From an uncultured archaeon (GTDB lineage: Archaea; Asgardarchaeota; Thorarchaeia; Thorarchaeales; Thorarchaeaceae): a stretch of 23,314 bases of DNA. Location of the stretch: positions 1-23,314 of the forward strand of contig CAZPWM010000045.1 of assembly GCA_964590575.1 (NCBI GenBank), read 5' to 3'. The first letter of the stretch is position 1, and every line of letters starts with the position of its first letter. This document shows, piece after piece, positions 137 to 15,889 of the stretch. The notes below the pieces were generated by a model. That model searched no databases. It was not told where the DNA came from and was given only the letters and a program-made list of their open reading frames with translations. The position numbers and the translations under genes were made by a program.

Positions 137-278
137 CTTTCATACAATCTACTTCATATTTGTATAGCAATAGTACGATGAGGGTTGGTTGCGGTCAGTC
201 ACATTGTCTCGCGTAAGTACTCTTAAGTAAGTGTTAGCTGTTTCTGCACTGGACACGACTACAGAAGAGGATGCTCTG

Positions 279-2618
279 TTGAGTAACATTCTACCTAGCT
301 CAAAGAAGAAACCAATTGAAGAGATAGAAGATACAGATGACACTACAATCTACACAAGTCTTCTTTTCGAGCTCAATATCAAGGCCCAAGAATCAGTGAA
401 GGAGTTTGCCCTCCATGACATAGATGATCGCGAAGGTCTTGAGAAAAAACGTATAGATATGCATGACACCTTCACAGAACTATACGACACCATTGCAGCC
501 TTCAACGAACAAATAATGATTGAGGATTTTGATATTGCATATCTGAGAAACAGGATTGCACAGAGTGAGGGAGAAACCAAAGAGCAGCTCGAAACAGCGC
601 TTGAAGAGATTATAACTCAGTCTAAGAAGAATCTCGCAGATGTATGGATGGCAAGGGTCATGGCATGGTTGCATCAGGCGGCTGCTGCAAGTGGACCCTT
701 TGTTGAAGAAGAGCATGCGGACAAGGAGAAGAGTGCTTCCAAACATCTTGCTGCAGTCTACACAATGCTAGAGAAACCGTTCTCTGCAACCCCCCAAAAA
801 ATAGACGGGACTCAGAAGCTCCGTCGAGTGGCCTTGGGTATGCAAGCATATACACTCCTCAAAGAGAGTCTCGATGCTGACGATTCGGAACTTTCTTCAA
901 CTCTCGGAAAGAACAAGAGCGCTGAAGCTGAGTTCTATGACGAATTCTTGAACGAGCTCGTCGGTCAGGAGAGTACGTTCAGACAAGCATTCAACCCGTT
1001 TGACGAACTCATCTGGAGGGACATCATCAGCTCATTCATCTTTGAACAAGCAACTGACCTATATAATGAGGCCATTCCATACTTTGGCAAGGCGCGAGAA
1101 TATAAAGAAAAAGTATCGATGTTGAAGTCTTGGAAGCATAACACAGCTGGACTCAGCGAGGTGTATCTTGCGATGACCTACACGGATATAGCTGATGCCC
1201 AGATGCGAGCAGGCAACTTGGAGGATGCTTCCAAATTGTATCAAGTGGCTTCTGACGCGTTTGGACGTGCAGAGAAGTGTTTCAGAGAGGTAATCGCACT
1301 TCAGACTAATGCCGAGCAGTCACGACTTGACAAAGAACAGAAAAAAGCCCAATCACTGTATTGTAGCGTTGAATCTAGTGTGCAGACTCTGTCACAATTA
1401 ATCAAGGTAAACAATAAGACAGAAGCAAATCAAGTATTGAAAGATATTTTCAAGAATTTAGAGAAAGCAGAGCAACTCGCAAAAACACGCGAGCTAACAG
1501 GTGCAATCAAAGAGGACCTTAAGACTTACACATTCGTTAAAGATCTCCTTGGCAAACGCAAGAAGAATGAAGAAATTAGTAGCATTATTGACCAGATACA
1601 ATTCGCTAAAGACCTCCGAAAAACAGGTCTAATTCAAAGTGTGAGTAAGGAACTCGACGAAGCATATGCTCTGATGGCAAAGAATCCTGCTGAAGCTCTT
1701 GACTCGATCCGTGAGGGTCTAGATAGTTTGGGCATTCTTTTGAGTTTGGAAGCCGAGGACCAAGAGGTGGGAAATCTTCGAAATAGAACTCTGGCACTCC
1801 TCAACAATGTGAAGTATATGATTCAGTTTCAATTGAGTTCACAGCTCGAGCATGGAGTGAAATTCATCATGTCACGCATTCTTGAGAATCTTCATGCTGC
1901 AGAGGCGGCGTCCTACTATAAGGTGATTGGAGAAAAGGAGCCTGCGCAAGAGTTAACGGACTTAGGAAAGCTTGCTCTTGCGACTGCATTTGCCTCAGAA
2001 GCGCAAGTCTACTCACGACAGTCTGAGCAGTGGTCGTTCAGAGCGCAGATTGAGAGAGTGAATGCTTTATCAACTCTAGAGGACGAGCTTTTGCAGCTAG
2101 AGGACGGCGAAACAATCGAAGATGCACTAGCGATTCATGATGGAGCAATTTCAAGAATTAAACAGACGGTTGCCTCATTCGAGTCTGCAGCAAATGAACT
2201 TGATAGTGTCAAAGGGGAGATTATACGTGCCAAAAATAATGTCGAATCTCAGGTTAAACAGCTACAAGGCGTAGTCATGAAATTCAAAGGAGACCTGTCA
2301 CGAATTCAAGGTGCTAGAAGTGATTTCATGGCAGAATACATGTTCAAGACGGGAGAGAAATCTAAAGCTAAGACGCATTATTCAGAAGCGAACGACCAAC
2401 TTCGGGAAGCTGTTGGTAACTATACTGTAGCAGCGCAGGTCTTCCAGCAAGTAGGAGATGCGCAAGCAGCTCAGAACGTGGATGGCAGAGCAAAGACTAC
2501 AGATCTACTGGCGAGGAGTATCTGGGACAACAGACAGCGTCTCGAGAGAGACCAGGATCCTAGCCAGAAAGGTGAAGCTGAACTTATCGCGCTCTACCTT
2601 GGTTCATCGGGACAGTAA
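279..2618 (+). CDS. Large all-alpha TPR/alpha-SNAP-like and coiled-coil protein, function unknown
   Basis: Long ORF (track start 231). TTG at 279 preceded by GAGG (267-270) is the more plausible start. Rich in A/E/L/K/Q with no TM segment. Helical-repeat-like segments include 'IADAQMRAGNLEDASKLYQVASDAFGRAEKCF' and 'MAEYMFKTGEKSKAKTHYSEANDQLREAVGNYTVAAQVFQQVG'. Confidence 0.6.
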   Translation: MSNILPSSKKKPIEEIEDTDDTTIYTSLLFELNIKAQESVKEFALHDIDDREGLEKKRIDMHDTFTELYDTIAAFNEQIMIEDFDIAYLRNRIAQSEGETKEQLETALEEIITQSKKNLADVWMARVMAWLHQAAAASGPFVEEEHADKEKSASKHLAAVYTMLEKPFSATPQKIDGTQKLRRVALGMQAYTLLKESLDADDSELSSTLGKNKSAEAEFYDEFLNELVGQESTFRQAFNPFDELIWRDIISSFIFEQATDLYNEAIPYFGKAREYKEKVSMLKSWKHNTAGLSEVYLAMTYTDIADAQMRAGNLEDASKLYQVASDAFGRAEKCFREVIALQTNAEQSRLDKEQKKAQSLYCSVESSVQTLSQLIKVNNKTEANQVLKDIFKNLEKAEQLAKTRELTGAIKEDLKTYTFVKDLLGKRKKNEEISSIIDQIQFAKDLRKTGLIQSVSKELDEAYALMAKNPAEALDSIREGLDSLGILLSLEAEDQEVGNLRNRTLALLNNVKYMIQFQLSSQLEHGVKFIMSRILENLHAAEAASYYKVIGEKEPAQELTDLGKLALATAFASEAQVYSRQSEQWSFRAQIERVNALSTLEDELLQLEDGETIEDALAIHDGAISRIKQTVASFESAANELDSVKGEIIRAKNNVESQVKQLQGVVMKFKGDLSRIQGARSDFMAEYMFKTGEKSKAKTHYSEANDQLREAVGNYTVAAQVFQQVGDAQAAQNVDGRAKTTDLLARSIWDNRQRLERDQDPSQKGEAELIALYLGSSGQ

Positions 2619-2633
2619 TTTACCATTTGTTTG

Positions 2634-4796
2634 TCAAGATACTGTGATGTTGGACGCCATAGCTTTTTGATTGGTTTGCACTGTATGTAGACGTTTCGCA
2701 CAGAATGGTTGGAACTCAACACCACCAGCATGATAGAACTTACTAAACCACTCCACAAAGTGTAACCTGAGCGTGTGCATGAAACCAAGTAGTCCTTCAA
2801 GGATTCCCACAATCAGAGTACCAATGAAGGCACCTAGAATTGGCATAACAGGAGGACCTGTGTAGTGTTCTGTGATTACCTCATGTGGAATTATCTCAAT
2901 ACCAAACAATGAGAATTCTGGAAAGTAGATGTTAATAATTGGTGGCAGCATAGTGATGAAAACACTACTGAGAATAATGTGTACTGTGTTTAAGGCGAAG
3001 ATACGTGCATAGCTCACAGTGTGGCTGATCATTCCAATGACACTCTCTAGGAGGTGTACAAAACCATCCATCCCTCCTATGAATGAAGCGATCATCATGA
3101 CAACAAGTGGAATAATGAACATCATGAGTGTGAACACCAATGGGGCAATTGGTAAAACCGGATAGAACGGATTGTGTGTCCCTGTGCCCGCTCCGATACC
3201 AATAATGGGGAGCCATAGAGAAACAGTTCCAGATGGTAGGAACCAGTTACCAATACTATTGTAGCTAACACCAAAGATGAGATTGATAAAACCAAGATAC
3301 ATCCAGAGGTATGAAGCAGCAATCAATGCTTTCCGCATGTGCTTGTATTTCAGCTCGTTGTAAAGACTCAGTATGATGCCCATTGAGATGTGAATGACGC
3401 CCACCTCAATCGAGAGTTTGAGCATGTGTGTTGCGCGGTTGGGATCTGTATGTGCAAATATGGGCCACAATGGTTCGATGACTGTTTCTGCACCAAAGAA
3501 ACTTCCAAACAGGAAACCTCCCAAAATCGCAAATATGCCCATCATCATCAGACCTTGTGCGCCATTCTGGACATACCCTAGAATTGCACCCCAATCTTGA
3601 CCCTTCTTGTTAGCTCTGAGAGCAGCATATCCGATGAGAAAAATCAAAAAGCCCTGTCCGACATCCGCAAAGACCAGACCAAAGATCAATGGGAATGAGA
3701 ATGCCATGAGTTTAGTGGGATCAAGATCATGTCGGGAGGGAATACCAAAAGCCTTGACAACATCCTCTGTTGGTTTCATGAATTTTGGATTCGAGATGTA
3801 GGTTGGCGCTTCGACCTCAGCAAAATCCGGTTTGTCAAAGGTCACTTCAAGGGCGGGTCCTACGTTTTCGCGAAGAAGTGATTCAATCTCTTCCTCCTTG
3901 CCTTCTGGAATCCAACCCCACATCTTTATTGACTGCTCAGTATAGACAATATAGCTCTTGATTTCAATCCTTTTTCGTTCAATGTCAAGGGTTTCCCAAG
4001 CAGCAAGAATTCTTGTACCCCATTCGAGAGCGATGTGGTCCTTTCTCTTCTCTAGTTGCTCAATTTCCTGTTCAAGCTCAACAATCTGGTTCTGAGCATC
4101 TACTACAATCTGTTCAGGACTTCCAGCTGAATCCTCAGGGATGGTAAAAGCTTCATACTGCATAGCTGAGAGGATTCGCTCAACAGCTTCTTTCAATTCG
4201 ATAGGGACCGTAACGACACATACAGAGCCGCCTCTCTTCAGAGGTAGGATTCCAACAGTGTACGCGCCCTCAGTTACCTCGTTGATGCTCCATTCCAGTT
4301 CAGACTCTCTTCCTGAGGGAACTATTCCAGCAGTGGTGAAAGTGAAATCTGTAGAACCGATTAGACTAGGATCTATTCCTAGAGGTTTCAGTGAAACAGC
4401 AACGTCTGCAATACCTTTTTGACGCTCCATCTCAAGACGAGCTATTGTTGTCTTGGAATCAATGTCAAGAACTTCTGTTTCAACAGCAGAGATAACCTCT
4501 GAAGCCAGAGTAAGCGAATTCTCAAGTGTGGTATCATTGACCTCGGTGTATACTCCAGTTCGTTTTCTCGGATCGATCTCTAGTGACTCAAGTACCTTCG
4601 CCAACCGTTCATGGGCAGAGTATACAGTTTCCTCATCACGAGTCCGCTTAACATCAACAATCCCAGCTTGTCGCCGAACGTCAATGAATTCAAAGAGCGA
4701 AAACTCTTCAAGTGACATCAAAACTTGCCTCTCAAAATCTCTATGAGAAACAACTTTTACTACAATCATATTCTCAGGACTCATCCGAAGACCCAT
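2634..4796 (-). CDS. atpI: A/V-type ATP synthase subunit I (homolog of V-ATPase subunit a)
   Basis: Soluble helical N-terminal half followed by a multi-TM half. Signatures: 'WGWIP', 'DLDPT...FPLIFGLVFADVGQG', 'SHTVSYARIFAL' (essential Arg) and 'HTLRLHFVEWFSKFY..GG..F.PF'. GGAGA SD-like motif upstream. Confidence 0.96.
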   Translation of the reverse strand: MGLRMSPENMIVVKVVSHRDFERQVLMSLEEFSLFEFIDVRRQAGIVDVKRTRDEETVYSAHERLAKVLESLEIDPRKRTGVYTEVNDTTLENSLTLASEVISAVETEVLDIDSKTTIARLEMERQKGIADVAVSLKPLGIDPSLIGSTDFTFTTAGIVPSGRESELEWSINEVTEGAYTVGILPLKRGGSVCVVTVPIELKEAVERILSAMQYEAFTIPEDSAGSPEQIVVDAQNQIVELEQEIEQLEKRKDHIALEWGTRILAAWETLDIERKRIEIKSYIVYTEQSIKMWGWIPEGKEEEIESLLRENVGPALEVTFDKPDFAEVEAPTYISNPKFMKPTEDVVKAFGIPSRHDLDPTKLMAFSFPLIFGLVFADVGQGFLIFLIGYAALRANKKGQDWGAILGYVQNGAQGLMMMGIFAILGGFLFGSFFGAETVIEPLWPIFAHTDPNRATHMLKLSIEVGVIHISMGIILSLYNELKYKHMRKALIAASYLWMYLGFINLIFGVSYNSIGNWFLPSGTVSLWLPIIGIGAGTGTHNPFYPVLPIAPLVFTLMMFIIPLVVMMIASFIGGMDGFVHLLESVIGMISHTVSYARIFALNTVHIILSSVFITMLPPIINIYFPEFSLFGIEIIPHEVITEHYTGPPVMPILGAFIGTLIVGILEGLLGFMHTLRLHFVEWFSKFYHAGGVEFQPFCAKRLHTVQTNQKAMASNITVS

Positions 4797-4971: not shown

Positions 4972-5295
4972 ATGTGTGCAGCACACGATGAAATCGACCA
5001 GATTCATGAGAGTGAGAAAGCAGCCAATATGAGAATCGAAGACGCTCAGAAGAAGGCGCGCAAAATCCATGAAGGTGCAGATGAAGAAGCGAAAATGATT
5101 ATTAAGGCTGCTGAGAGAGAGGCAAAAGATACAGCTACGCGAATGCTTAGTGATATTGAGAGTAGAAAAGTAGAGATTGAATCTTCGGTTTTCAAGGAAA
5201 CAGAGAAGAGAATCAAGAAAATCCAAGACTCAGCACAAAAGAAAAGGGATGATGCATATCAAGCAGTCGTGAAGATTATTCTGGGGGAGGCATGA
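4972..5295 (+). CDS. atpH: A/V-type ATP synthase subunit H (homolog of V-ATPase subunit G, peripheral stalk)
   Basis: 107-aa charged coiled coil ('EIDQIHESEKAANMRIEDAQKKARKI...A.EEAKMII..AEREA') directly upstream of subunit E; size and pattern fit G/H. Confidence 0.82.
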   Translation: MCAAHDEIDQIHESEKAANMRIEDAQKKARKIHEGADEEAKMIIKAAEREAKDTATRMLSDIESRKVEIESSVFKETEKRIKKIQDSAQKKRDDAYQAVVKIILGEA

Positions 5296-5299
5296 TATC

Positions 5300-5929
5300 A
5301 TGACTGGAATGACAAACATTATTGAAATCATCAATTCCAAGACAAGTGTAAAGGAGAAAGAGATTCTCTCAGAAGCGGAATCATATAAAACGCAGAAGCT
5401 CAATGACGCACGTACAAAGGGAAAAGAGGTCGCCACAGCAATCACAAAGAAGGCCGAGATGGCTTCACACGCCGAGGTTTCCAGATACGAAGCAAGTGCC
5501 AAGCTAAAGTCGAAGTATCAACTTCTTGATGCTAAAGAAGTCCTGATTGCAGATGTTCTATCATCAGCTAGGACACATCTTGAAGAGCTGGTCAAGAAGA
5601 AAGCTTACGAGAAGACTCTTGAGAAACTAATCATTGATGCAGCAGCTTCACTCGAGGAGAGAAATCTAGAGATTGCTGCGCCAAAGGGACATACATCCAA
5701 TATTGACCTTAAAGCAATTGAAGCAGCTGTTGCTAAAGCGACTGGCAAAAAGACAACCTTCAGCATCTCGAAGGAAGAGGTACGTGCAACTGGTGGAGTT
5801 ATTGTACGGAATAAGGAATCAACCAGGTGGGTAGATAATACCTTCGAAGCAAGACTTGAGCGATTCGAAAGCGAGATACGGGACACTATCTCATCAATCC
5901 TATTCGTTACTAAAGAAAAGAAAGAGTAG
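5300..5929 (+). CDS. atpE: A/V-type ATP synthase subunit E
   Basis: 209 aa with an N-terminal coiled coil and the C-terminal subunit E motif 'GGVIV......VDNTFEARL'. Confidence 0.93.
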   Translation: MTGMTNIIEIINSKTSVKEKEILSEAESYKTQKLNDARTKGKEVATAITKKAEMASHAEVSRYEASAKLKSKYQLLDAKEVLIADVLSSARTHLEELVKKKAYEKTLEKLIIDAAASLEERNLEIAAPKGHTSNIDLKAIEAAVAKATGKKTTFSISKEEVRATGGVIVRNKESTRWVDNTFEARLERFESEIRDTISSILFVTKEKKE

Positions 5930-5968
5930 AGGGAGGACGACCACCTCTACTTGTTTCTCTATGTTTTT
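5925..5968. terminator. Stem-loop with flanking A/T tracts between convergent atpE and atpK (possible bidirectional terminator)
   Basis: AGTAGAGG (5925-5932) is the reverse complement of CCTCTACT (5944-5951), with an inner GG-ACGA-CC. T-rich tract follows on + (TTGTTTCTCTATGTTTTT); A-rich tract precedes (T-rich on -). Confidence 0.55.
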
Positions 5969-6370
5969 CTAAGGAAGAAGGTTGCCAATTAATCCTACAA
6001 GAAGGAATGCAATTACAAAGCCGTAGATTGCCACAGCCTCAATGAATACTACATAAAGGATACTCTTTCCGAAAGTTTCAGGTTTTTCAGTGATGGCTCC
6101 AAGTGCAGCTGCAGAAGCAGTACCCATTCCAAGACCAGCACCAATTCCAGCTAGGCCCAGGGCAAGACCGGCACCAATTCCAAGACCGAGAATGGCCCAA
6201 CCGTTCCCATCTGCTATTTGCGCAGGTACAAATCCGTTGTCGACTGGTACACCCAATGCTCTTAGAACCGTAGAAGCATCGGCCATGGAAATAGCAAATA
6301 TCGCAAGGGTAAGAAGAACTACACCCATCATCATCATGGCCATGAACTTGATTCGATTGTCGATTTTCAT
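5969..6370 (-). CDS. atpK: A/V-type ATP synthase subunit K (proteolipid c), single hairpin plus N-terminal signal/extra TM segment
   Basis: Gly/Ala-rich inner helix 'GAGLALGLAGIGAGLGMG', loop 'AITEKPE', outer helix 'FIEAVAIYG' with the carrier Glu. Start moved to ATG 6370 because of GGAGG SD at 6385-6381. Confidence 0.95.
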   Translation of the reverse strand: MKIDNRIKFMAMMMMGVVLLTLAIFAISMADASTVLRALGVPVDNGFVPAQIADGNGWAILGLGIGAGLALGLAGIGAGLGMGTASAAALGAITEKPETFGKSILYVVFIEAVAIYGFVIAFLLVGLIGNLLP

Positions 6371-6390
6371 GTGATCGTTTCCTCCATTTC

Positions 6391-7455
6391 TCACCAGATT
6401 GTTATCATCTTTCTAATGTTTTCGGCAGACTGTCCTCGTTCAACCCCAACTGCAATAGAGCGGATGTTTCGCATTTCATACGCCTTAAGGCTGAAAAATC
6501 CAATGATTGTTCCCAAGTGAAAAGGATATGCTGTCAATAACTGTTTCACTCTCTGAGCTAAATAGTCTTCAATTGCCAGCTCAACATCTGAGAGATCATC
6601 GGTTTCTTCATAGAGCCTAGCAATTCTCCCGCCAAACTGACCAAAACGGGTAGATTCCATCTTCGTGATCACATCACGCCATGTGTTTACCGACTTGAGA
6701 GAGTCAGTGAACTCACGGGCTTTGGCAAATCTGATCAACGACTGTTCTAGAACACGCGATTTCCACTGAAGAGTGACTGCTCGAAGTGCAGTCAGAACAT
6801 TCCGGAGAATAACCCGTGACTCCAAGATATCTAGAACCCGTCGTGCTTCTTCGGTTGAAAACTTTTTGAGTGCTTCTAGAACCTTCTTGAGGTACCATTC
6901 CTCGATAGCTACTTCAAGAGGAGCTGGAGAATTGAACTCTTCATAGCTCGGTAGTTTGGTCAAGAGTGCCACTCTGAGGTCCCAATGGGGGAGGAGGTCT
7001 ATCAGTTTACTAACTGAACCAGCATCAACCAACGTTTCGAACAAAGTAGCCTGGTCAGGATCTTGTGGAACTGCGAAACGTAGAATCTCAGCCCTATCAA
7101 GACCAACGTGAATACCTCGAATAATCGATTTAACACTCTCTGCCATGAACATCTCAAGATAGGTGTTCGTGAACTCACGAACCTTTCCAGTGAGTGAACG
7201 CGACAGATTTGTGCTCACATTGGCAAAGTCCCGGGAGAGAATAAGTGCAAGTTCCTCAGGACCAGGTCTACTGGTTGATGACACTCTGCTGATGACCTGA
7301 CCGTAATATGTCCCAGAGAGAATCTTGATGAAGTCCTCATAGCTGTTACTCTGAAGTAGGCTCTCATAACTGCCAACTGTAAGGAATCGAGATTTCATTC
7401 CTCGAATTCTTGCATTGACAAAGCCATATTCATTTGCAGACTTTGAGGCCATCAT
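6391..7455 (-). CDS. atpC: A/V-type ATP synthase subunit C (homolog of V-ATPase subunit d)
   Basis: N-terminal 'YGFVNARIRGMKSRFL' and C-terminal 'PFHLGTIIGFFSLKAYEMRNIRSIAVG' are subunit C/AC39 signatures. Start moved to ATG 7455 (or 7452). Confidence 0.94.
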   Translation of the reverse strand: MMASKSANEYGFVNARIRGMKSRFLTVGSYESLLQSNSYEDFIKILSGTYYGQVISRVSSTSRPGPEELALILSRDFANVSTNLSRSLTGKVREFTNTYLEMFMAESVKSIIRGIHVGLDRAEILRFAVPQDPDQATLFETLVDAGSVSKLIDLLPHWDLRVALLTKLPSYEEFNSPAPLEVAIEEWYLKKVLEALKKFSTEEARRVLDILESRVILRNVLTALRAVTLQWKSRVLEQSLIRFAKAREFTDSLKSVNTWRDVITKMESTRFGQFGGRIARLYEETDDLSDVELAIEDYLAQRVKQLLTAYPFHLGTIIGFFSLKAYEMRNIRSIAVGVERGQSAENIRKMITIW

Positions 7456-7600
7456 GAATTTTCTACTCTTCACAATCTGGTGAGGACTACGGACAGACAA
7501 TTTATGCACGATATAAGCTTGACGAACGGGTAACATCATAAGAATTGTGAGTAGAAGAATTCAAATAACTAGCAATCCTCATCGGATTCAGTTGGTCAAT

Positions 7601-8167
7601 ATGACGGAACCTCATTAGGATTATATCAATCTTGGAAGCCTGTTCAGAAGCTCAGCAACAATCACTTTCGTTATACAAATCGTTGCAGTCATTGTGATGA
7701 TTGGGTCGTTGTCAGCTTATGCGGTAGGTAATTTGTTCTTTGTATTAAATGACGAATTGAAGATTCTTGTTCTTCTAGTAACCAGTATCATTGCATTGTT
7801 GATCTTTTTAGCTGCAATGAGCGTGTTCATCCGGTTCTCAAGACGGATTGGAGATGCCGTTGTTGGACCGGGCGTCGAAGAGGTGAGGATGGGGACTCCA
7901 AGAGTGAAGTTGGTGGTAGCTGCCTTCGGTCTTCTTGTCGCGTTGATGGGAGTCACTGGAATTTATGTTTGGTATCTCATTGATCTTTATTATCTTGTAC
8001 CATGGGCAGCTTCATTGAGTTCAATCTCAATCAGAATCTTTGGTATTGGTCTTGGGGCATTCTTCATAGCACTGCTCATTCAGATTATTATTGCAGGAGT
8101 CGGGAGGAGCGCTACAAAGGTCATTATTGAGGTTCTGGATGCTGATGACTCTGATTTCATAGAGTGA
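7601..8167 (+). CDS. 4-TM membrane protein of unknown function; frame from ATG 7601 contains an in-frame TAG at 7616-7618 (read-through, pseudogene or base-call error)
   Basis: The track ORF starts at GTG 7694 in the middle of a hydrophobic helix. The same frame upstream reads MTEPH*DYINLGSLFRSSATITFVIQIVAVIVMIGS. Four hydrophobic segments and an acidic tail. Confidence 0.6.
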
Positions 8168-8175
8168 TCGAGAGG

Positions 8176-8529
8176 TCATTCATCAGTGCTTTCATCAGTA
8201 ATATTGGGTTCCAGGTCAAAAGTTACATCTTCAAGAATCTCTTCCAAGGGGGGCATGTATGCAGTTCTACGTTTCGTTTCGATGTCAAGCTTGTCAAAAT
8301 ACTTGATTGTAATAAAGACGCTATACACCCCGAATGCAAACCCGAAGAGAGCTCCGAGAATTGCACCCAATGTAGCACCAGATGTTCCCGCAATAGAACC
8401 ACCTACTATCTGACCGACCAAGAGTAAGGCAATAACAGCACACGGTAGTTCAGAAGAAACCGCAAGCCATTTGCCCATATTGGCCATACCCTCATCTGGA
8501 CTGACTCTTTCGTTATTTGACTCACTCAT
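8176..8529 (-). CDS. Small 2-TM protein resembling the AtpZ/AtpI (ATPase_gene1) family
   Basis: 'SSELPCAVIALLLVGQIVG....G....LGAILGALFGFAFGVYSV' follows the 'E+...+....+G..+.....G.....G.++G...G.Y.+' pattern of AtpZ-type proteins. Located ~0.7 kb from atpC. Acidic C-terminal tail. Confidence 0.5.
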   Translation of the reverse strand: MSESNNERVSPDEGMANMGKWLAVSSELPCAVIALLLVGQIVGGSIAGTSGATLGAILGALFGFAFGVYSVFITIKYFDKLDIETKRRTAYMPPLEEILEDVTFDLEPNITDESTDE

Positions 8530-8641
8530 GAGCCTTTACAAGAGTCATACGCAATATCTGTTTTGGTAGGCAAAATTGGAGAAGTGCACCATGGTGAATG
8601 TTTTTGTGAGTGTTCCGTACATCCAATAGCGAGGCGAGACG

Positions 8642-9928
8642 TTGGAAGTACAGATAACATATGGTGATGGGACAATAAAGCTCAACATACCAGATAAGAA
8701 CCTTGCAGGGGTTATCGAGCCTAAGCCAACAAAGACCACAACTGATGTTCTAGCGGGTATTGAACACGTTCTTGACAATCCTCACGGTCCATCACTCTCA
8801 GAGATCTCGAGGAGTAAGAGTGTCTGTGTTTTGGTCGAAGATCACACTCGAGATGCTCCGCACTGGGCGATGGTGTCGGCAGTTGTTCCACATCTTGTAG
8901 ATGCTAACAAGGTTCAGTTCATTATCACAACCGGTTCTCACGAGGTGCAGCATCCCGGTAATATTGAGATTGTTGATATGATTAAGCGTGTAGCTGATGA
9001 TGCAAAGCTCCACAATTATGACGTCATTATTCATGACTGCCAGTTTCCAGATATGGTTGACATAGGAAAGACGAGTAGAGGCACCCCCGTTATTGTCAAC
9101 GCTGCTGCAGTTGGACATGATGTCTATGTGAGCCTGTCTGATATGAAGGCGCACTACTTTGCAGGTTATTCGAACGTTGTGAAAAACTTCCTACCAGGTG
9201 TCTGTGGCTTCAAGACCATTGAGGCAAATCACGCTCTTGCCCTCAACCCACGGTCTACATTTGGAATCCATCCATTTCATCCTGATGAAACTAGACGTGA
9301 CAATCCATTGGCTGATGATATGAGAGAAGCTATGGAGATGATTGCTCGAGAAGCAAAGATATTCTCGGTCGCTATTGTGTCAAGCAACAGGAAACTAGTG
9401 TGGGCTGATGCAGGACTTCCTAAACATGTGGCAGCTCGAGGAATGGAACTACTGGATGAAACATCAAGCTTCAAGGTGACACCTCAGACTAGAATTGTAG
9501 TATCACCAGGAGGTTATCCTCAAGACAAGAGTCTGTATCACGCTCAGAGAGCGATTGAGCTTACAAAAAATGCTGTCGTTGATGGGGGTCAGATTTTGTT
9601 CCTCGCAGAGTGCAGAGACGGTGTTGCTCCAGAGTCAGCAATCGAGAATTTCTACAACAAACTCACCGCGCCTATTGAAGAGGTGATTACATCAATCAGC
9701 GGCAAATATCACCTGTACGAGCACAAAGCCTACAAATTTGCAGAGCTCCTAAAGCGAATCTCAAGTGTTCGTTTGTATTCCAAGTTGGACAAAGATATCG
9801 TCGAAGCAGCTCATCTTGGGAGTGTGGAGGACCCGCAGTTGGTAATTGATGAATGGATCAGTGAGAATCCACACGTGAAGATACTTGTCCTTGACAAAGG
9901 AAACAAGATTGCAATCTATGCGGATTAA
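8642..9928 (+). CDS. LarA-family nickel-pincer-dependent 2-hydroxy-acid racemase/epimerase
   Basis: Motifs 'EDHTR', 'TGSH', 'HYFAGYS...KNFLPG', 'EANH', 'SPGGYP.D..LY' and 'LAECRDG'. TTG start with GAGG upstream. Confidence 0.9.
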   Translation: MEVQITYGDGTIKLNIPDKNLAGVIEPKPTKTTTDVLAGIEHVLDNPHGPSLSEISRSKSVCVLVEDHTRDAPHWAMVSAVVPHLVDANKVQFIITTGSHEVQHPGNIEIVDMIKRVADDAKLHNYDVIIHDCQFPDMVDIGKTSRGTPVIVNAAAVGHDVYVSLSDMKAHYFAGYSNVVKNFLPGVCGFKTIEANHALALNPRSTFGIHPFHPDETRRDNPLADDMREAMEMIAREAKIFSVAIVSSNRKLVWADAGLPKHVAARGMELLDETSSFKVTPQTRIVVSPGGYPQDKSLYHAQRAIELTKNAVVDGGQILFLAECRDGVAPESAIENFYNKLTAPIEEVITSISGKYHLYEHKAYKFAELLKRISSVRLYSKLDKDIVEAAHLGSVEDPQLVIDEWISENPHVKILVLDKGNKIAIYAD

Positions 9929-11886: not shown

Positions 11887-12834
11887 ATGACGAAAATTGC
11901 GGTTGTCACAGGAGCTGCTGGTTTCATCGGAAGTCATCTTGTGGACCTGTTACTTGCTAACGGGGTTTCAGTCATTGGCGTAGATAACTTGAGAACAGGC
12001 AATCTTCAGAACTTGGAAGGACCTCTAAAACATAATGCCTTCCGGTTCCTGAAAGAGGATATCTGTAGTCGGAAGTTTCCGGATATTATTCGAGAGGATG
12101 TTGATGTAATCTTTCATTTCGCTGCAATCTCATCTGTGAAACTTTCCGTTGAAAACCCGATTCTTGTGAACGATACAAATGTCCAGGGTACAATTAACGT
12201 ACTGGAGATGGCAAGGAAACTAGATGTGAAGAGATTCGTCTATAGCTCAAGCGCCGCAGTCTATGGAGATCCAGAATCACTTCCAGTACAAGAGGAAACC
12301 CCCCTTTATCCTCTGAGTCCGTATGCAGCATCGAAGATCTCTGCTGAGATGTACAGTATCTCTTATGAAAACCTGTATGGGATATCTCCAACCATCTTTC
12401 GATACTTCAACGTGTATGGACCACGTCAAGAAAAATCTGAATACAGTGGCGTGATTCCTATCTTTATCACTCAGGGGCTTCAGAATAAAGACATCACAGT
12501 CGAGGGAGATGGAAAACAAACAAGGAGCTTCATCTTTGTTGAGGATATTGCAAATGCAACCTATCTAGGTAGTCAGATTGGAGATGCTTCGTGTCAAATT
12601 CTAAACCTGTCTGGGACTGACTCCATTAGGATTCTTGACCTCGCTCGTTTGGTCAAGGACCGTATTCCTGAGTCCACTTCTAACATAGTTCATCGTGATG
12701 CTCGTGAGGGAAACGTGAAGGATAGTATTGGGAGTATGGAGAGAACCTCGAAAGTTCTAGGATTCTCTCCCTCTGTTCCCTTCGAAACTGGACTTGACCG
12801 TACGGTCTCCTGGTATAGATTGCATCAAGAGTAA
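11887..12834 (+). CDS. NAD-dependent nucleotide-sugar epimerase/dehydratase (GalE/WbpP-like extended SDR)
   Basis: 'VTGAAGFIGSHL', 'HFAA', 'SSSAAVYG', catalytic 'YAASK', 'RYFNVYGPRQ', 'GDGKQTRSF'. Start moved to ATG 11887. Confidence 0.93.
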   Translation: MTKIAVVTGAAGFIGSHLVDLLLANGVSVIGVDNLRTGNLQNLEGPLKHNAFRFLKEDICSRKFPDIIREDVDVIFHFAAISSVKLSVENPILVNDTNVQGTINVLEMARKLDVKRFVYSSSAAVYGDPESLPVQEETPLYPLSPYAASKISAEMYSISYENLYGISPTIFRYFNVYGPRQEKSEYSGVIPIFITQGLQNKDITVEGDGKQTRSFIFVEDIANATYLGSQIGDASCQILNLSGTDSIRILDLARLVKDRIPESTSNIVHRDAREGNVKDSIGSMERTSKVLGFSPSVPFETGLDRTVSWYRLHQE

Positions 12835-15800
12835 GTGATGGTCAAGAGCAGATTGATTTGATCCACGACTCCATCATCTGTACGCAATATCACCATCACT
12901 AGATATTGAACTAGTACGATGCCTTCAGGCAAGTATGCTGTTACGAGCGGTGCAGTTCCATAGAGGTCACCAGCACCAATCATGCCAATGTCCATAGTGA
13001 ATGTCTGGTTCCCAGGATTGATGGCAGGTGTAATCGCTGAACCATGCCAGAGTACTAAGAAGTTACTTGACGATGGTACTACAATGTCTAAGTAGAGATG
13101 TTGCGTGATGTTGTCATTGTTCCGCATCTGAGCTATCAGGCTAGAGAATTCTCCAGAGTCGATAGTGTGCGGGCTGAAGCTGACACTCTCGAAACCAACT
13201 TCACCAGTTTCTACAACTGTCTGATTGAGAAGTCCAAACATCTTGTAGTATGCTTCAACTACACTCTCACCAAGTTCAACACGATCACCAGTCTGTACAT
13301 CTACGAGACCTACGCCACCCAACTTCTGGATCACTCTATTTACGGAGGTTTCCACCTCAAGAAAGACAGGAATCACGAAGAACAAATCGCCTCCCAGATG
13401 ATATAGGAGCTTGTTTCCATATCGATGTTCACCCCAGAGCTGGATTTGTGTTCGCACCACATCATTCGTTTCAAATGCTTGGACAGCAGCGGTAGGACCG
13501 AGCCAGTTCGAGAATCCATCTTCACCAGCTTTATAGAACGTTAACCGACCAAAGTCTGTGTCACCACAACCCATAATGTATATGCCTGCGAGGTTATGCG
13601 CTGTAGCCAGCCTGAATTCGGCGTTGTGATAGGCTATGAAACGTTCCACACCCTCAATAGTCATGATCACATATCTAGTGTCGGATTCCTCCGGACTCTG
13701 GTGAAAATCAATACCGGTACTCCACTTTTCACCCTCATCGACATGGAATATGTAGGCTACATTAAGCTGGCGTTCATAGAGGTCTTCTGGCCATTTCAAC
13801 TGGGACTGAAGCCAATCTGGAGTTTCCTGCCAATCGTAGTAATCTCGGTAGGTGATATCTAGGAAAAGACCTTCGTCTGAAGCAGGAGCAGCATAGAACT
13901 GCATCTCACCAGATTCTATACCTACTAGACAAACACCCATGAACCGCATGTAATTCTCATGTGCGTAACCCGTAGATAGACGATAATCAATATAGATTGA
14001 TACAGCGTAGAAGATATTCCCATTTGGATCCACTACGAGGTATGGGTCATTGTCAATTGACAGCCCCTGTAGCATTATAGAGTCCACACGTGATAGAACA
14101 TCTCGTTCCACAAGCATGTCCATATCTCTACCAATGTATGACCAAGCTTCCGGACCCATTGTGAGGATATAGAAGAACGACTCAAAACCACTGAGTGTAT
14201 AATCAGGGGTCCCTCCGAAAGTAGCATTGCCAACCTCCTCAAAGCTAGGAACGTTGACAAACACCACGTCGTTGAAACCCTGACCTTCGCCATAGTAGAA
14301 ATTGATGTCTTCAGTCCGATTAAATAGAGATATGAGATTATCATCCTCGACTAATTCGCCACTGAACGCATCAAGAACGACAATACCTTCTGTGTGAGTG
14401 TAAAGGATATGTTGATTTATGAAACTAGTCCAGGTTGCACTTGTATCGAATGTCAGAGGGGCAATCCAATATTCATGGTTCTTTAACAAGACAATATCTG
14501 AGTCAGCGAGTTGCAGCCAGTTCGTACCAATCTGGTTCCGCATTCGCAGATAACTCGCCGTTTGGTCCCACTGTCGAACATTGGTAAGTGTTTCAATTTC
14601 AGTTGTGGGAGTAGCATTTAACGTGAGCGCTTCGATTGGTTTTACTTCGAAATCACTCAATCCCGTAGCCCATTTTGTGATTTCTATTTCTTTTTGTGTT
14701 TCTAGATTAAATTTCCAATCGATATACTTGTCCCCATCCATCTGAATCCCATAGTATAGTCCCTGGATGATAGGAAGCATGACGACAATCACAATCAGAA
14801 AGCCTGCGACTAATGCAAAGGATTTCTGACCCCCACCAATTGGAATTAGCCGTTCAATCTTAAGCCTCCGAAGCTCATTCGCTATATTCACACGGTCTTC
14901 CATGAGCAGGTTCACACGTTTCCGATATCCTTCAGCATCGATGGCTCCAGTTTCATACTCTTGGCGGAGAGAGAGAAGTTCACCTTGTAATCGGGCTAGG
15001 TCTCCTTCAAGGGAGGTGATCTTGCTTTTCAGACGTTGACGAACATCACCAGAACGAACTCTTGCAGCCATGAAAACGACTGAACCTACAAGACTCGCAC
15101 CGAGTGCAATAATCAGTGCTAGATAACTCATCCAAGTTCCAGCATTGACAGTCCAAGTGGGGACATTGAGAATCTCAAGAACTAGAACTAGCGAAACTAC
15201 GAGAAGGCCTTTGGAGATTACAACAAATACATCTCGCCTCTGTAGCATCAGATCAGTTGCTACGCTTAAGGCGAGTCTTGCGGCTGTGGCCACTAGTACT
15301 GTGGAGATGAGCCCAACATAGAGTTGATACGCCTCCATTGCAGGAATCAGACTCTGGATTGAGGCTGCACTGGTTCCTGGTGCAAAAGGCAACGAAAACA
15401 GGGTCCCAACTTGACCGGGTGTTATAGAGATTGCCCCGTCACGCATCAACATCATCAGAAAGGCCACATTCTGCCCAGTGACCGAATAGCCTCCAATTGA
15501 TACGTAGTAGAAGAAGAAGGCTCCAATCAGAAGTAATCTCCATAGAATTCCAGATCTGAGGTCCAACTTCTTGAGATGGGTGCCAGTTTGCGAGAGTGCT
15601 GAAATGAAGGATAGTGATGTCGAACGTGTCCAGAGTGTAAATACGGTACTTAAGATAGCTAACAGAAGTGATGCAGTGAAGATATTATTCTCTAAGGTCC
15701 AAGTATCCCAGAACCCTACATTTGCTTTCGTAGTAAATAAGTCGTTATAGATTGTCTGACCTAGCCACCAACCATAGGCGGCGCTGCCAGCTAAAATCCC

Positions 15801-15848
15801 AATTATAGCTATGATTAGGAGAATGATAAGGACACGTAGGTACTTCAT
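12825..15848 (-). CDS. UPF0182-family integral membrane protein with coiled-coil/SHOCT-like insertion and C-terminal beta-rich domain
   Basis: Multi-TM N-terminus followed by a large extramembrane region with UPF0182-like motifs 'NVRQWD', 'HILYTHTEG', 'FYYGE', 'DPYLVV' and 'WPEDLY..Q'. Start moved to ATG 15848 (purine-rich SD upstream). 3' end overlaps the epimerase by 10 nt. Confidence 0.8.
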   Translation of the reverse strand: MKYLRVLIILLIIAIIGILAGSAAYGWWLGQTIYNDLFTTKANVGFWDTWTLENNIFTASLLLAILSTVFTLWTRSTSLSFISALSQTGTHLKKLDLRSGILWRLLLIGAFFFYYVSIGGYSVTGQNVAFLMMLMRDGAISITPGQVGTLFSLPFAPGTSAASIQSLIPAMEAYQLYVGLISTVLVATAARLALSVATDLMLQRRDVFVVISKGLLVVSLVLVLEILNVPTWTVNAGTWMSYLALIIALGASLVGSVVFMAARVRSGDVRQRLKSKITSLEGDLARLQGELLSLRQEYETGAIDAEGYRKRVNLLMEDRVNIANELRRLKIERLIPIGGGQKSFALVAGFLIVIVVMLPIIQGLYYGIQMDGDKYIDWKFNLETQKEIEITKWATGLSDFEVKPIEALTLNATPTTEIETLTNVRQWDQTASYLRMRNQIGTNWLQLADSDIVLLKNHEYWIAPLTFDTSATWTSFINQHILYTHTEGIVVLDAFSGELVEDDNLISLFNRTEDINFYYGEGQGFNDVVFVNVPSFEEVGNATFGGTPDYTLSGFESFFYILTMGPEAWSYIGRDMDMLVERDVLSRVDSIMLQGLSIDNDPYLVVDPNGNIFYAVSIYIDYRLSTGYAHENYMRFMGVCLVGIESGEMQFYAAPASDEGLFLDITYRDYYDWQETPDWLQSQLKWPEDLYERQLNVAYIFHVDEGEKWSTGIDFHQSPEESDTRYVIMTIEGVERFIAYHNAEFRLATAHNLAGIYIMGCGDTDFGRLTFYKAGEDGFSNWLGPTAAVQAFETNDVVRTQIQLWGEHRYGNKLLYHLGGDLFFVIPVFLEVETSVNRVIQKLGGVGLVDVQTGDRVELGESVVEAYYKMFGLLNQTVVETGEVGFESVSFSPHTIDSGEFSSLIAQMRNNDNITQHLYLDIVVPSSSNFLVLWHGSAITPAINPGNQTFTMDIGMIGAGDLYGTAPLVTAYLPEGIVLVQYLVMVILRTDDGVVDQINLLLTITYS

Positions 15849-15870
15849 GAGCTCTTTCCTCTCTCGTTGA

Positions 15871-15889
15871 TGCATCTCTATTAGATGCA
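15871..15889. promoter_or_regulatory. 7-bp inverted repeat upstream of the UPF0182 gene and downstream of def
   Basis: TGCATCT-CTATT-AGATGCA; operator or terminator role not distinguishable. Confidence 0.3.

Follow-up and report, generated by a model that had tools for sequence, protein, structure and literature searches.

A small two-helix membrane protein linked to the A/V-type ATPase membrane genes of Asgard archaea: a divergent AtpZ/AtpQ-like protein and candidate assembly factor

How archaea put their A-type ATP synthase together is essentially unknown, and our literature search returned no paper naming an assembly factor for these enzymes and none on an AtpZ-like gene in an A/V-type operon. 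The question is raised afresh by a 23,314-nucleotide stretch of DNA, here called the window, from an uncultured archaeon of the Thorarchaeaceae (Asgardarchaeota; assembly GCA_964590575.1, contig CAZPWM010000045.1, positions 1 to 23,314 of the forward strand). An open reading frame (ORF) at 8176..8529 on the minus strand, whose product we give the working name Z, encodes a small membrane protein and lies close to the genes for the membrane part of an A/V-type ATPase. What is this protein, and does its place beside the ATPase genes mean anything? The neighborhood survey described below supports a specific tie, widespread in Asgard archaea, between the Z family and the A/V-ATPase membrane module of subunits I, C and K. 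Sequence comparison supports Z as a divergent branch of an AtpZ/AtpQ-like group, one that itself scores below the curated family threshold.

The ORF (ATG start, 117 residues) is a real gene under purifying selection. The proportion of nonsynonymous differences (pN) was smaller than that of synonymous differences (pS) in 9/9 pairwise comparisons with nine full-length orthologues, and the ratio of nonsynonymous to synonymous substitution rates (dN/dS) was 0.08-0.24 in the five pairs with unsaturated dS. The product has a polar N terminus, a hydrophobic helix 1 that opens with an S-E-L-P-C motif containing Glu27, a short uncharged Gly/Ser loop, a helix 2 carrying a GxxxG ladder (glycines 51, 55, 59, 63 and 67, with V-Y next), a basic K-R-R and an acidic tail. 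In the tail, residues 75-117, there are 13 Asp/Glu against 5 Lys/Arg, and the conserved acidic motif is Y-M-P-P-x-E-E-I-L-E-D-V-x-F. Hydropathy is maximal at approximately residues 22-46 and 52-76. The AlphaFold2 model, made from a 29-sequence alignment, is a helical hairpin with helices at 11-47 and 49-88 and a further short helix at 95-101; its predicted local distance difference test score (pLDDT) is 83-87 at residues 31-70, with a mean of 65.9 and values below 50 at both termini. The two-helix hairpin, membrane-proximal Glu, GxxxG-bearing second helix and acidic tail reported in a first-pass annotation, which was made from the letters of the window alone, were all found again in the sequence, the hydropathy profile and the model. 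By the positive-inside rule, the basic residues after helix 2 and the uncharged loop indicate that both termini are most likely cytoplasmic.

A word-indexed search gave 135 homologues at E≤0.01 from 151 candidates, the named ones nearly all from Thorarchaeota (hereafter Thor). The family is small: phmmer, run exhaustively on 1.84 billion cluster representatives, returned 16 matches at E≤0.001. Positions invariant in the 29-member alignment include G19, W21, E27, P29, C30, G39, G43, G55, G59, G63 and G67 and, in the tail, P93, E97, E100, V102 and F104.

The family that Z most resembles is PF09527 (AtpZ/AtpQ, ATPase_gene1), for which the curated cut-off is 26.6 bits over a profile of 54 positions. 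The two transmembrane segments looked for in this family are present in Z, as the two model helices and the two hydropathy peaks. We built three profiles: A1 from the Thor Z family, A2 from 14 non-Thor Asgard proteins, and A3 from the two merged (30 sequences). In what follows, f-numbers denote Asgard families, L-numbers loci and P-numbers proteins. Compared by hhalign, A1 and A2 aligned with a probability of 99.6 % and an E value of 2.8e-24 over 77 columns, which is the whole hairpin. In the merged alignment no sequence departs from G39, G59, G63 or G67, and Glu27 and Pro29 are kept in 90 % of sequences or more. The remoter Asgard relatives, found with tblastn and phmmer, are those at L047/L048 (labelled Jordarchaeia) and L049, together with P0129 and P0132; they score 31.0, 28.3, 27.0 and 25.4 bits against PF09527 across profile positions 5-53, and the window protein itself reaches P0129 at an E value of 1.1e-6 by phmmer against the whole library. 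Indeed, 10 of 301 Asgard genomes, from three families, contain PF09527 matches over the cut-off (27.3-34.5 bits). The AtpZ/AtpI-like identity proposed at first pass thus stands, through an alignment to Asgard proteins that reach the PF09527 cut-off. The comparison with hidden Markov models (HMMs) that had been suggested along with it came out divided: PF09527 was negative for the window protein and positive by way of its remote homologues, and VMA21 was negative.

Within the Thor family, PF09527 matches at E≤1 in 13/29 members (best 9.2e-5), and the scan of 301 Asgard genomes gave no Thor-family (f1, f2) match over the cut-off. Database labels point the same way as the profiles. Among the matches listed, 5 of 120 homologues carry the JGI label "F0F1-type ATP synthase assembly protein I"; a Heimdallarchaeota relative is labelled "AtpZ/AtpI family protein" by NCBI; and in the ESM Atlas every one of the nearest clusters is PF09527 (score 0.85, 189/256 features common), which we take as a lead only. 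The relatives found also include one Bathyarchaeia protein (P0146). Weak PF09527 matches appeared in only 3/25 of the remoter ATPase-linked ORFs tested, so most of the ATPase-linked group is invisible to Pfam.

Other family assignments fared less well, and the window protein has no significant match in Pfam or NCBIfam. The glycine-zipper two-transmembrane families (PF05433, PF13488, PF13441) match 29/29 members at E≤1, with a best value of 1.5e-4; the cut-offs are 24-29 bits, the window protein attains 12.4-14.5, and we rejected membership, reading these sub-threshold matches as compositional. Identity with the c/K proteolipid (PF00137) was rejected as well: there is no profile match, helix 2 has no acidic residue, and the sole conserved Glu opens helix 1. 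UncI/AtpI (PF03899, cut-off 25.1 bits) gave no match for the window protein, and its best relatives are sub-threshold, at 19.7 bits (L138) and 17.2 bits (P0122), with weak E values of 0.007 (P0122) and of 0.0012 and 0.013 (two f3 proteins). Sub-threshold NCBIfam matches were to the ATP-synthase-associated Cg1360, where the window protein reached E 0.02 and an f12 relative 4.8e-4, and to TIGR02230 (E 0.039). Two further PF09527 observations belong here. The genome of the window has a second PF09527-like match, on contig C67 at 17.4 bits: a 129-residue hydrophobic ORF beside what looks by eye like a carboxyltransferase ORF. A control search with PF09527 at E≤0.001 also matched in Methanocaldococcus jannaschii, an archaeon that has an A-type ATPase only.

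The tie to the ATPase is carried by the gene neighborhoods of other Asgard families. All 10 loci with a PF09527 match over the cut-off adjoin atpC; in eight, Z lies directly upstream of atpC on the same strand, in one it is divergent and in one convergent. In those same-strand loci atpK follows atpC wherever the locus extends far enough. With A3 at a threshold of E≤1e-5, we found the Z family in 123/301 Asgard genomes, comprising 68/76 genomes of the window's family plus members of 15 other families, and we inspected 40 loci drawn from the weaker, mostly non-Thor A3 matches in 13 families. In 33 of these 40, atpC, atpK or atpI lies within 1 kb of Z, on the same strand in 20 and on the opposite strand in 13. 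The same-strand orders include I-Z-C-K in f3 and f8, Z-C in f12, f13 and f21, and K-Z in f15; opposite-strand Z genes mostly converge on atpK (f16, f22, f4). Of the seven loci that differ, two have atpC 3.5-4.4 kb off, four show no ATPase gene in the stretch, and one is a 33-codon Thor remnant. At these loci the Z-like ORFs are separate two-helix proteins of 75-121 residues, not fragments of atpK. Moreover, the gene most often touched by Z relatives in other Asgard families is atpC, and the flanking non-ATPase genes vary from family to family, leaving ATPase adjacency as the sole neighborhood feature kept. Such adjacency is not chance, because the ATPase membrane genes make up, by our estimate, well under 1 % of a 3-Mb genome. 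Metagenome loci place Z beside atpC in 6/7 cases; they derive from lineages already covered and do not count as independent. The survey of Asgard neighborhoods that the first-pass annotation had called for therefore bears out the conserved linkage, at 10/10 and 33/40 loci.

Three of these loci have features of separate interest. At L150 (G025 contig C13, approximately 23318-23988, f18) two tandem Z-like matches lie next to atpC, and the first copy ends in a zinc-ribbon-like C-P-x-C...C-P-x-C tail; PF09527 is combined with PF10571 in several relatives. At L047/L048 a 584-residue multi-helix ORF (6058-7818, plus strand), which by eye resembles a NuoL/Mrp-type antiporter, lies directly upstream of Z-atpC-atpK.

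Around Z itself the window has the following genes.

2634..4796, minus strand: atpI, membrane stator subunit I/a (PF01496)
4972..5295, plus strand: atpH, peripheral stalk subunit H/G (PF16999 and TIGR02926, both sub-threshold or near threshold)
5300..5929, plus strand: atpE, peripheral stalk subunit E (PF01991)
5969..6394, minus strand: atpK, c-ring proteolipid (PF00137, E 8.1e-20)
6391..7539, minus strand: atpC, A/V-ATPase subunit C, eukaryotic d (PF01992, E 3.4e-52)
7694..8167, plus strand: predicted four-transmembrane (4-TM) ORF, 157 residues, no known family
8176..8529, minus strand: the Z gene, divergent AtpZ/AtpQ-like (ATPase_gene1) member (homologues, alignment, hhalign, AlphaFold2 model)
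8642..9928, plus strand: LarA-like gene (Lar_N and LarA_C domain matches), divergent from Z
Listed after the LarA-like gene, same window: FGGY kinase gene

The distance from atpC to Z is 0.64 kb, close to the 0.7 kb first given for the atpC-atpK pair, and the interval holds the opposite-strand 4-TM gene, convergent with Z across an 8-bp gap. The atpK start and the atpC stop share 4 bases, and the atpK product is one c-subunit hairpin after a hydrophobic N-terminal leader. That leader is an extension of about 60 residues with one hydrophobic, signal- or anchor-like helix ahead of the hairpin; a variable N-terminal extension is also found in other Asgard atpK genes, and an internal M-K-I-D, eight codons inside ORF 5969-6394, is the probable conserved start. 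No ATPase subunits other than I, H, E, K and C are encoded in the cluster of the window; F, A and B have their genes on a separate contig, C52, of the same genome. Except for E and H, which belong to the stalk, the cluster fits the earlier description as Vo-only. On C52, atpF and atpA come first, then a uracil-DNA glycosylase gene and an unknown 171-residue ORF, and last atpB (L174 2385-7204); atpD was not recognised in the 11 kb of this contig around atpF-atpA-atpB. Metatranscriptomes carry little of the region: five runs hold small shares of the stretch 5900-8700, and contigs from four of them match, at many mismatches, portions of the two genes atpK and atpC as well as the 7700-7848 part of the 4-TM gene. 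Positions 8176-8529 are not reached by any contig of these four runs, a result that is uninformative on Z expression. Elsewhere in the window, a 795-residue ORF at 231-2618 (plus strand) flanks atpI, is syntenic in Thor loci and belongs to no Pfam family, and a UPF0182-like membrane protein of 1016 residues is encoded at 12825-15875 (minus strand).

Synteny within Thor is of less use than the survey above. The region including LarA and FGGY is syntenic throughout the 46 Thor-type loci. Since LarA and FGGY are equally constant neighbors, Thor synteny says little on the ATPase tie; and since LarA, like FGGY, is absent beside Z in other Asgard families, it is a lineage-specific neighbor and not part of the system. 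Nine Thor loci have no atpC: four break off within a few hundred bases, two extend less than 2 kb on the flank, and in the other three 4.5 kb or more is taken up by other genes. In the simplest inferred history, an ancestral Z-atpC-atpK order would have been broken in Thor when Z was inverted and the 4-TM gene inserted.

What, then, might Z do? With about even confidence, we regard it as a non-catalytic accessory or assembly factor of the Ao rotor, a proposal that draws on gene position and on analogy with UncI/AtpI. As a small membrane protein, Z would build or stabilise the Ao rotor: its glycine-ladder helix could pack on helix 1 of K, itself rich in glycine, during ring formation or capping by C, and its conserved acidic cytoplasmic tail may meet a partner that is soluble or peripheral. 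An accessory or assembly role is favored because Z adjoins atpC and atpK, because a gene so frequently on the opposite strand suits a factor better than a stoichiometric subunit, and because the glycine ladder could pack against helix 1 of K. The more specific proposal, that Z is a dedicated chaperone for assembly of the proteolipid ring (with C) of A/V-type ATPases across a large part of Asgard, is possible and is offered tentatively. A complex prediction of Z with three atpK hairpins, a partial ring run with no controls, gave an interaction prediction score from aligned errors (ipSAE) of 0.01 in both runs (mark 0.32), a value that weighs on binding in neither direction.

Several findings weigh against an ATPase assembly role for an AtpZ-like protein. 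For the window protein, no PF09527 match was found at E≤1 and the score is below the curated cut-off; Z was not picked up at E≤10 when the genome of the window was scanned with the PF09527 HMM. In the window Z is upstream of atpC and on the same strand, yet it lies outside the atpC-atpK operon, with an opposite-strand gene intervening. LarA flanks Z in 46/46 Thor-type loci and is a more constant neighbor there than atpC, found in 37/46. The ATPase clusters of this genome also accept unrelated inserts, as the uracil-DNA glycosylase gene between atpA and atpB illustrates. In the literature examined, no PF09527 protein is given an assembly role, and the sole reported experimental role of AtpZ is in Mg2+ acquisition (PMC4453477). 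Finally, A3 does not detect Z in several families that bear atpC: f9 (0/68), f5 (0/28), f14 (0/11) and f27 (0/11).

This last point deserves closer attention, as it sets a limit on any role. With atpC present in 276/301 Asgard genomes, many atpC-bearing genomes have no detectable Z, so Z cannot be a general requirement of A/V-ATPases. Absence is in part a sensitivity problem of A3, because three of four loci from "negative" f22 genomes have a Z-like ORF convergent on atpK. No two-helix ORF was found beside atpC in the inspected loci of f27 (four loci), f9 (two), f29 (one) and f17 (one). In the entries compared, atpC matches PF01992 at E values of about 1e-20 to 1e-35 in Z-negative families and about 1e-42 to 1e-69 in Z-positive ones, with f27 between; this suggests, as an impression and not a formal count, and with related genomes sharing labels, that Z goes with one ATPase lineage.

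Set against the accessory or assembly role are four other explanations. Z could be a small Mg2+/Ca2+ channel or an uptake aid that supplies Mg2+ near the ATPase, as proposed for AtpZ of Bacillus pseudofirmus OF4. PF09527 bears the title "Putative F0F1-ATPase subunit Ca2+/Mg2+ transporter"; atpZ enhances Mg2+ acquisition in B. pseudofirmus (PMC4453477, PMC10598746); and a Glu at the membrane boundary with a glycine-zipper helix that may oligomerise would suit a small pore. That Glu27, however, becomes Asn, Ser, Gly or Leu in the ATPase-linked groups f22, f16 and f13, and the acidic tail is restricted to the Thor-type family. Moreover, a place inside I-Z-C-K operons is more in keeping with an enzyme partner than with a general channel, and we consider the channel explanation unlikely.

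Z may, alternatively, remain in the mature Ao as a structural or regulatory subunit, like the small subunits e and f of eukaryotic Vo. An operon-internal place between atpI and atpC, as in f3 and f8, is typical of subunits, and the 123 Z-bearing genomes of the 301 seem to be those with the higher-scoring atpC genes against PF01992, again an impression. An opposite-strand arrangement, in 13 of the 33 linked loci and in the window, points instead to decoupled expression, which would be unusual for a stoichiometric subunit. Nor does any solved A/V-ATPase chain resemble Z: a profile search of the PDB gave weak MscL matches only (E 0.0065), taken as compositional, and Foldseek, given the Z model, retrieved nothing from the PDB at E≤0.001; its top hits were unrelated helical hairpins, and yeast Vo subunit f appeared at rank 49 (E 8.9). 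A mature subunit is, in our judgment, improbable.

A third explanation is confined to Thor: Z would act there with its 4-TM neighbor in something unrelated or loosely related to the ATPase, adjacency to atpC being inherited order. The two genes stand side by side in three loci that have no atpC in the flank (L030, L038, L039), and the whole region, LarA and FGGY included, moves together in Thor. The 4-TM C terminus, I-I-E-V-L-D-A-D-D-S-E-F, is almost invariant in 44 loci, and it is an acidic motif of a type similar to the E-E-I-L-E-D-V-x-F of the Z tail; the resemblance could be a shared docking motif or coincidence. Yet the 4-TM gene was found only at loci of the Thor type and at two close outgroup ones (L064, L161), and it is absent from all other Asgard loci in which Z touches ATPase genes. 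The loci that lack atpC also say less than they seem to. In the L038 genome atpC lies about 10 kb further on. The L030 genome has atpA and atpB, atpC and atpK were not found in it, and it is presumed, with no proof, to be the same as a phylum-sample assembly of equal size (one contig, 3.2 Mb) rated 86 % complete; its Ao genes are probably missing from the assembly. We accordingly rejected L030 as evidence against the ATPase tie, given that atpA and atpB are present and that the presumed assembly is 86 % complete. A partnership of Z with the 4-TM protein in place of the ATPase thus strikes us as decidedly unlikely. The first-pass annotation had gone the other way and suggested that the two proteins may share a rotary-ATPase assembly module. 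This was not supported either: no tie of the 4-TM protein to the ATPase turned up, it has no Pfam or NCBIfam family (the ESM Atlas offers only an unnamed Thorarchaeota cluster, 0.88), and its gene does not accompany Z at other ATPase-linked Asgard loci.

Least credible is that the AtpZ likeness reflects a generic glycine-rich two-helix hairpin of an unrelated family, a notion to which the sub-threshold glycine-zipper matches in 29/29 members and the want of a PF09527 match in most remoter ATPase-linked ORFs (3 weak in 25) lend something, and against which stand three proteins and 10 genomes over the PF09527 cut-off across nearly the whole profile, their shared possession of the family's defining context in a rotary ATPase operon, and 33/40 profile matches within 1 kb of ATPase genes that chance does not explain.

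The accessory or assembly role remains the most likely one, and a small conserved gene in the I-C-K module of many Asgard lineages is a concrete candidate for an assembly factor. What is new is the systematic attachment of the family to A/V-type membrane genes in Asgard, database labels having already hinted at the family; the function of the AtpZ/AtpQ family as a whole is unsettled, and Z is a good lead, not a surprise. The range of that family is widened from F/N-type to A/V-type enzymes. Should Z prove to be a ring chaperone, it would be the first known assembly factor for any archaeal rotary ATPase.

Among known systems the closest is AtpZ (B. pseudofirmus OF4)/AtpQ ("gene 1" of N-ATPase and other F-type operons), the PF09527 proteins: like Z, they are small two-helix hairpins with a Gly-rich helix 2, encoded beside rotary-ATPase membrane genes. 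The differences are that AtpZ and AtpQ belong to F- or N-type operons, whereas the Asgard Z family stands beside A/V-type I, C and K; that the acidic tail motif of the Thor-type Z is absent from other Asgard groups; and that an opposite-strand gene stands between the window's Z and atpC. As to a setting in or at the head of a rotary-ATPase operon, the window's Z is 0.64 kb from atpC and outside its operon, its relatives are linked at 10/10 and 33/40 loci, and the enzyme is A/V-type, the family having been described for the F/N-type. UncI/AtpI (PF03899), a small hydrophobic protein encoded with ATPase membrane genes, is the functional model for the proposed role. AtpI proteins usually have four helices, against two in Z. 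AtpI/UncI is reported to assist c-ring assembly, contacting c subunits (PMC2881411, PMC4154653), CGL160/Atp1 is its plant and cyanobacterial relative, and a duplication may be the link between the I, sI and R proteins (PMC4154653).

Vma21, the eukaryotic Vo chaperone of the endoplasmic reticulum, shares with Z a two-helix topology and the proposed ring role and nothing more. Vma21 carries a di-lysine retrieval signal; this has no counterpart in Z, whose tail ends in acidic residues. VMA21 gave no Pfam match at E≤1 for the window protein, for which 7 families were listed, and was not among the best 25 of 28 families for the 29 members. With no Foldseek match at E≤0.001 either, the bridge to Vma21 proposed at first pass reduces to a likeness in topology and proposed role, and nothing speaks for a common origin. 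If Z is indeed a ring chaperone, helpers of the AtpZ/AtpI type would serve both branches of the rotary ATPases, and the archaeal protein would do a job parallel to that of Vma21 for eukaryotic Vo.

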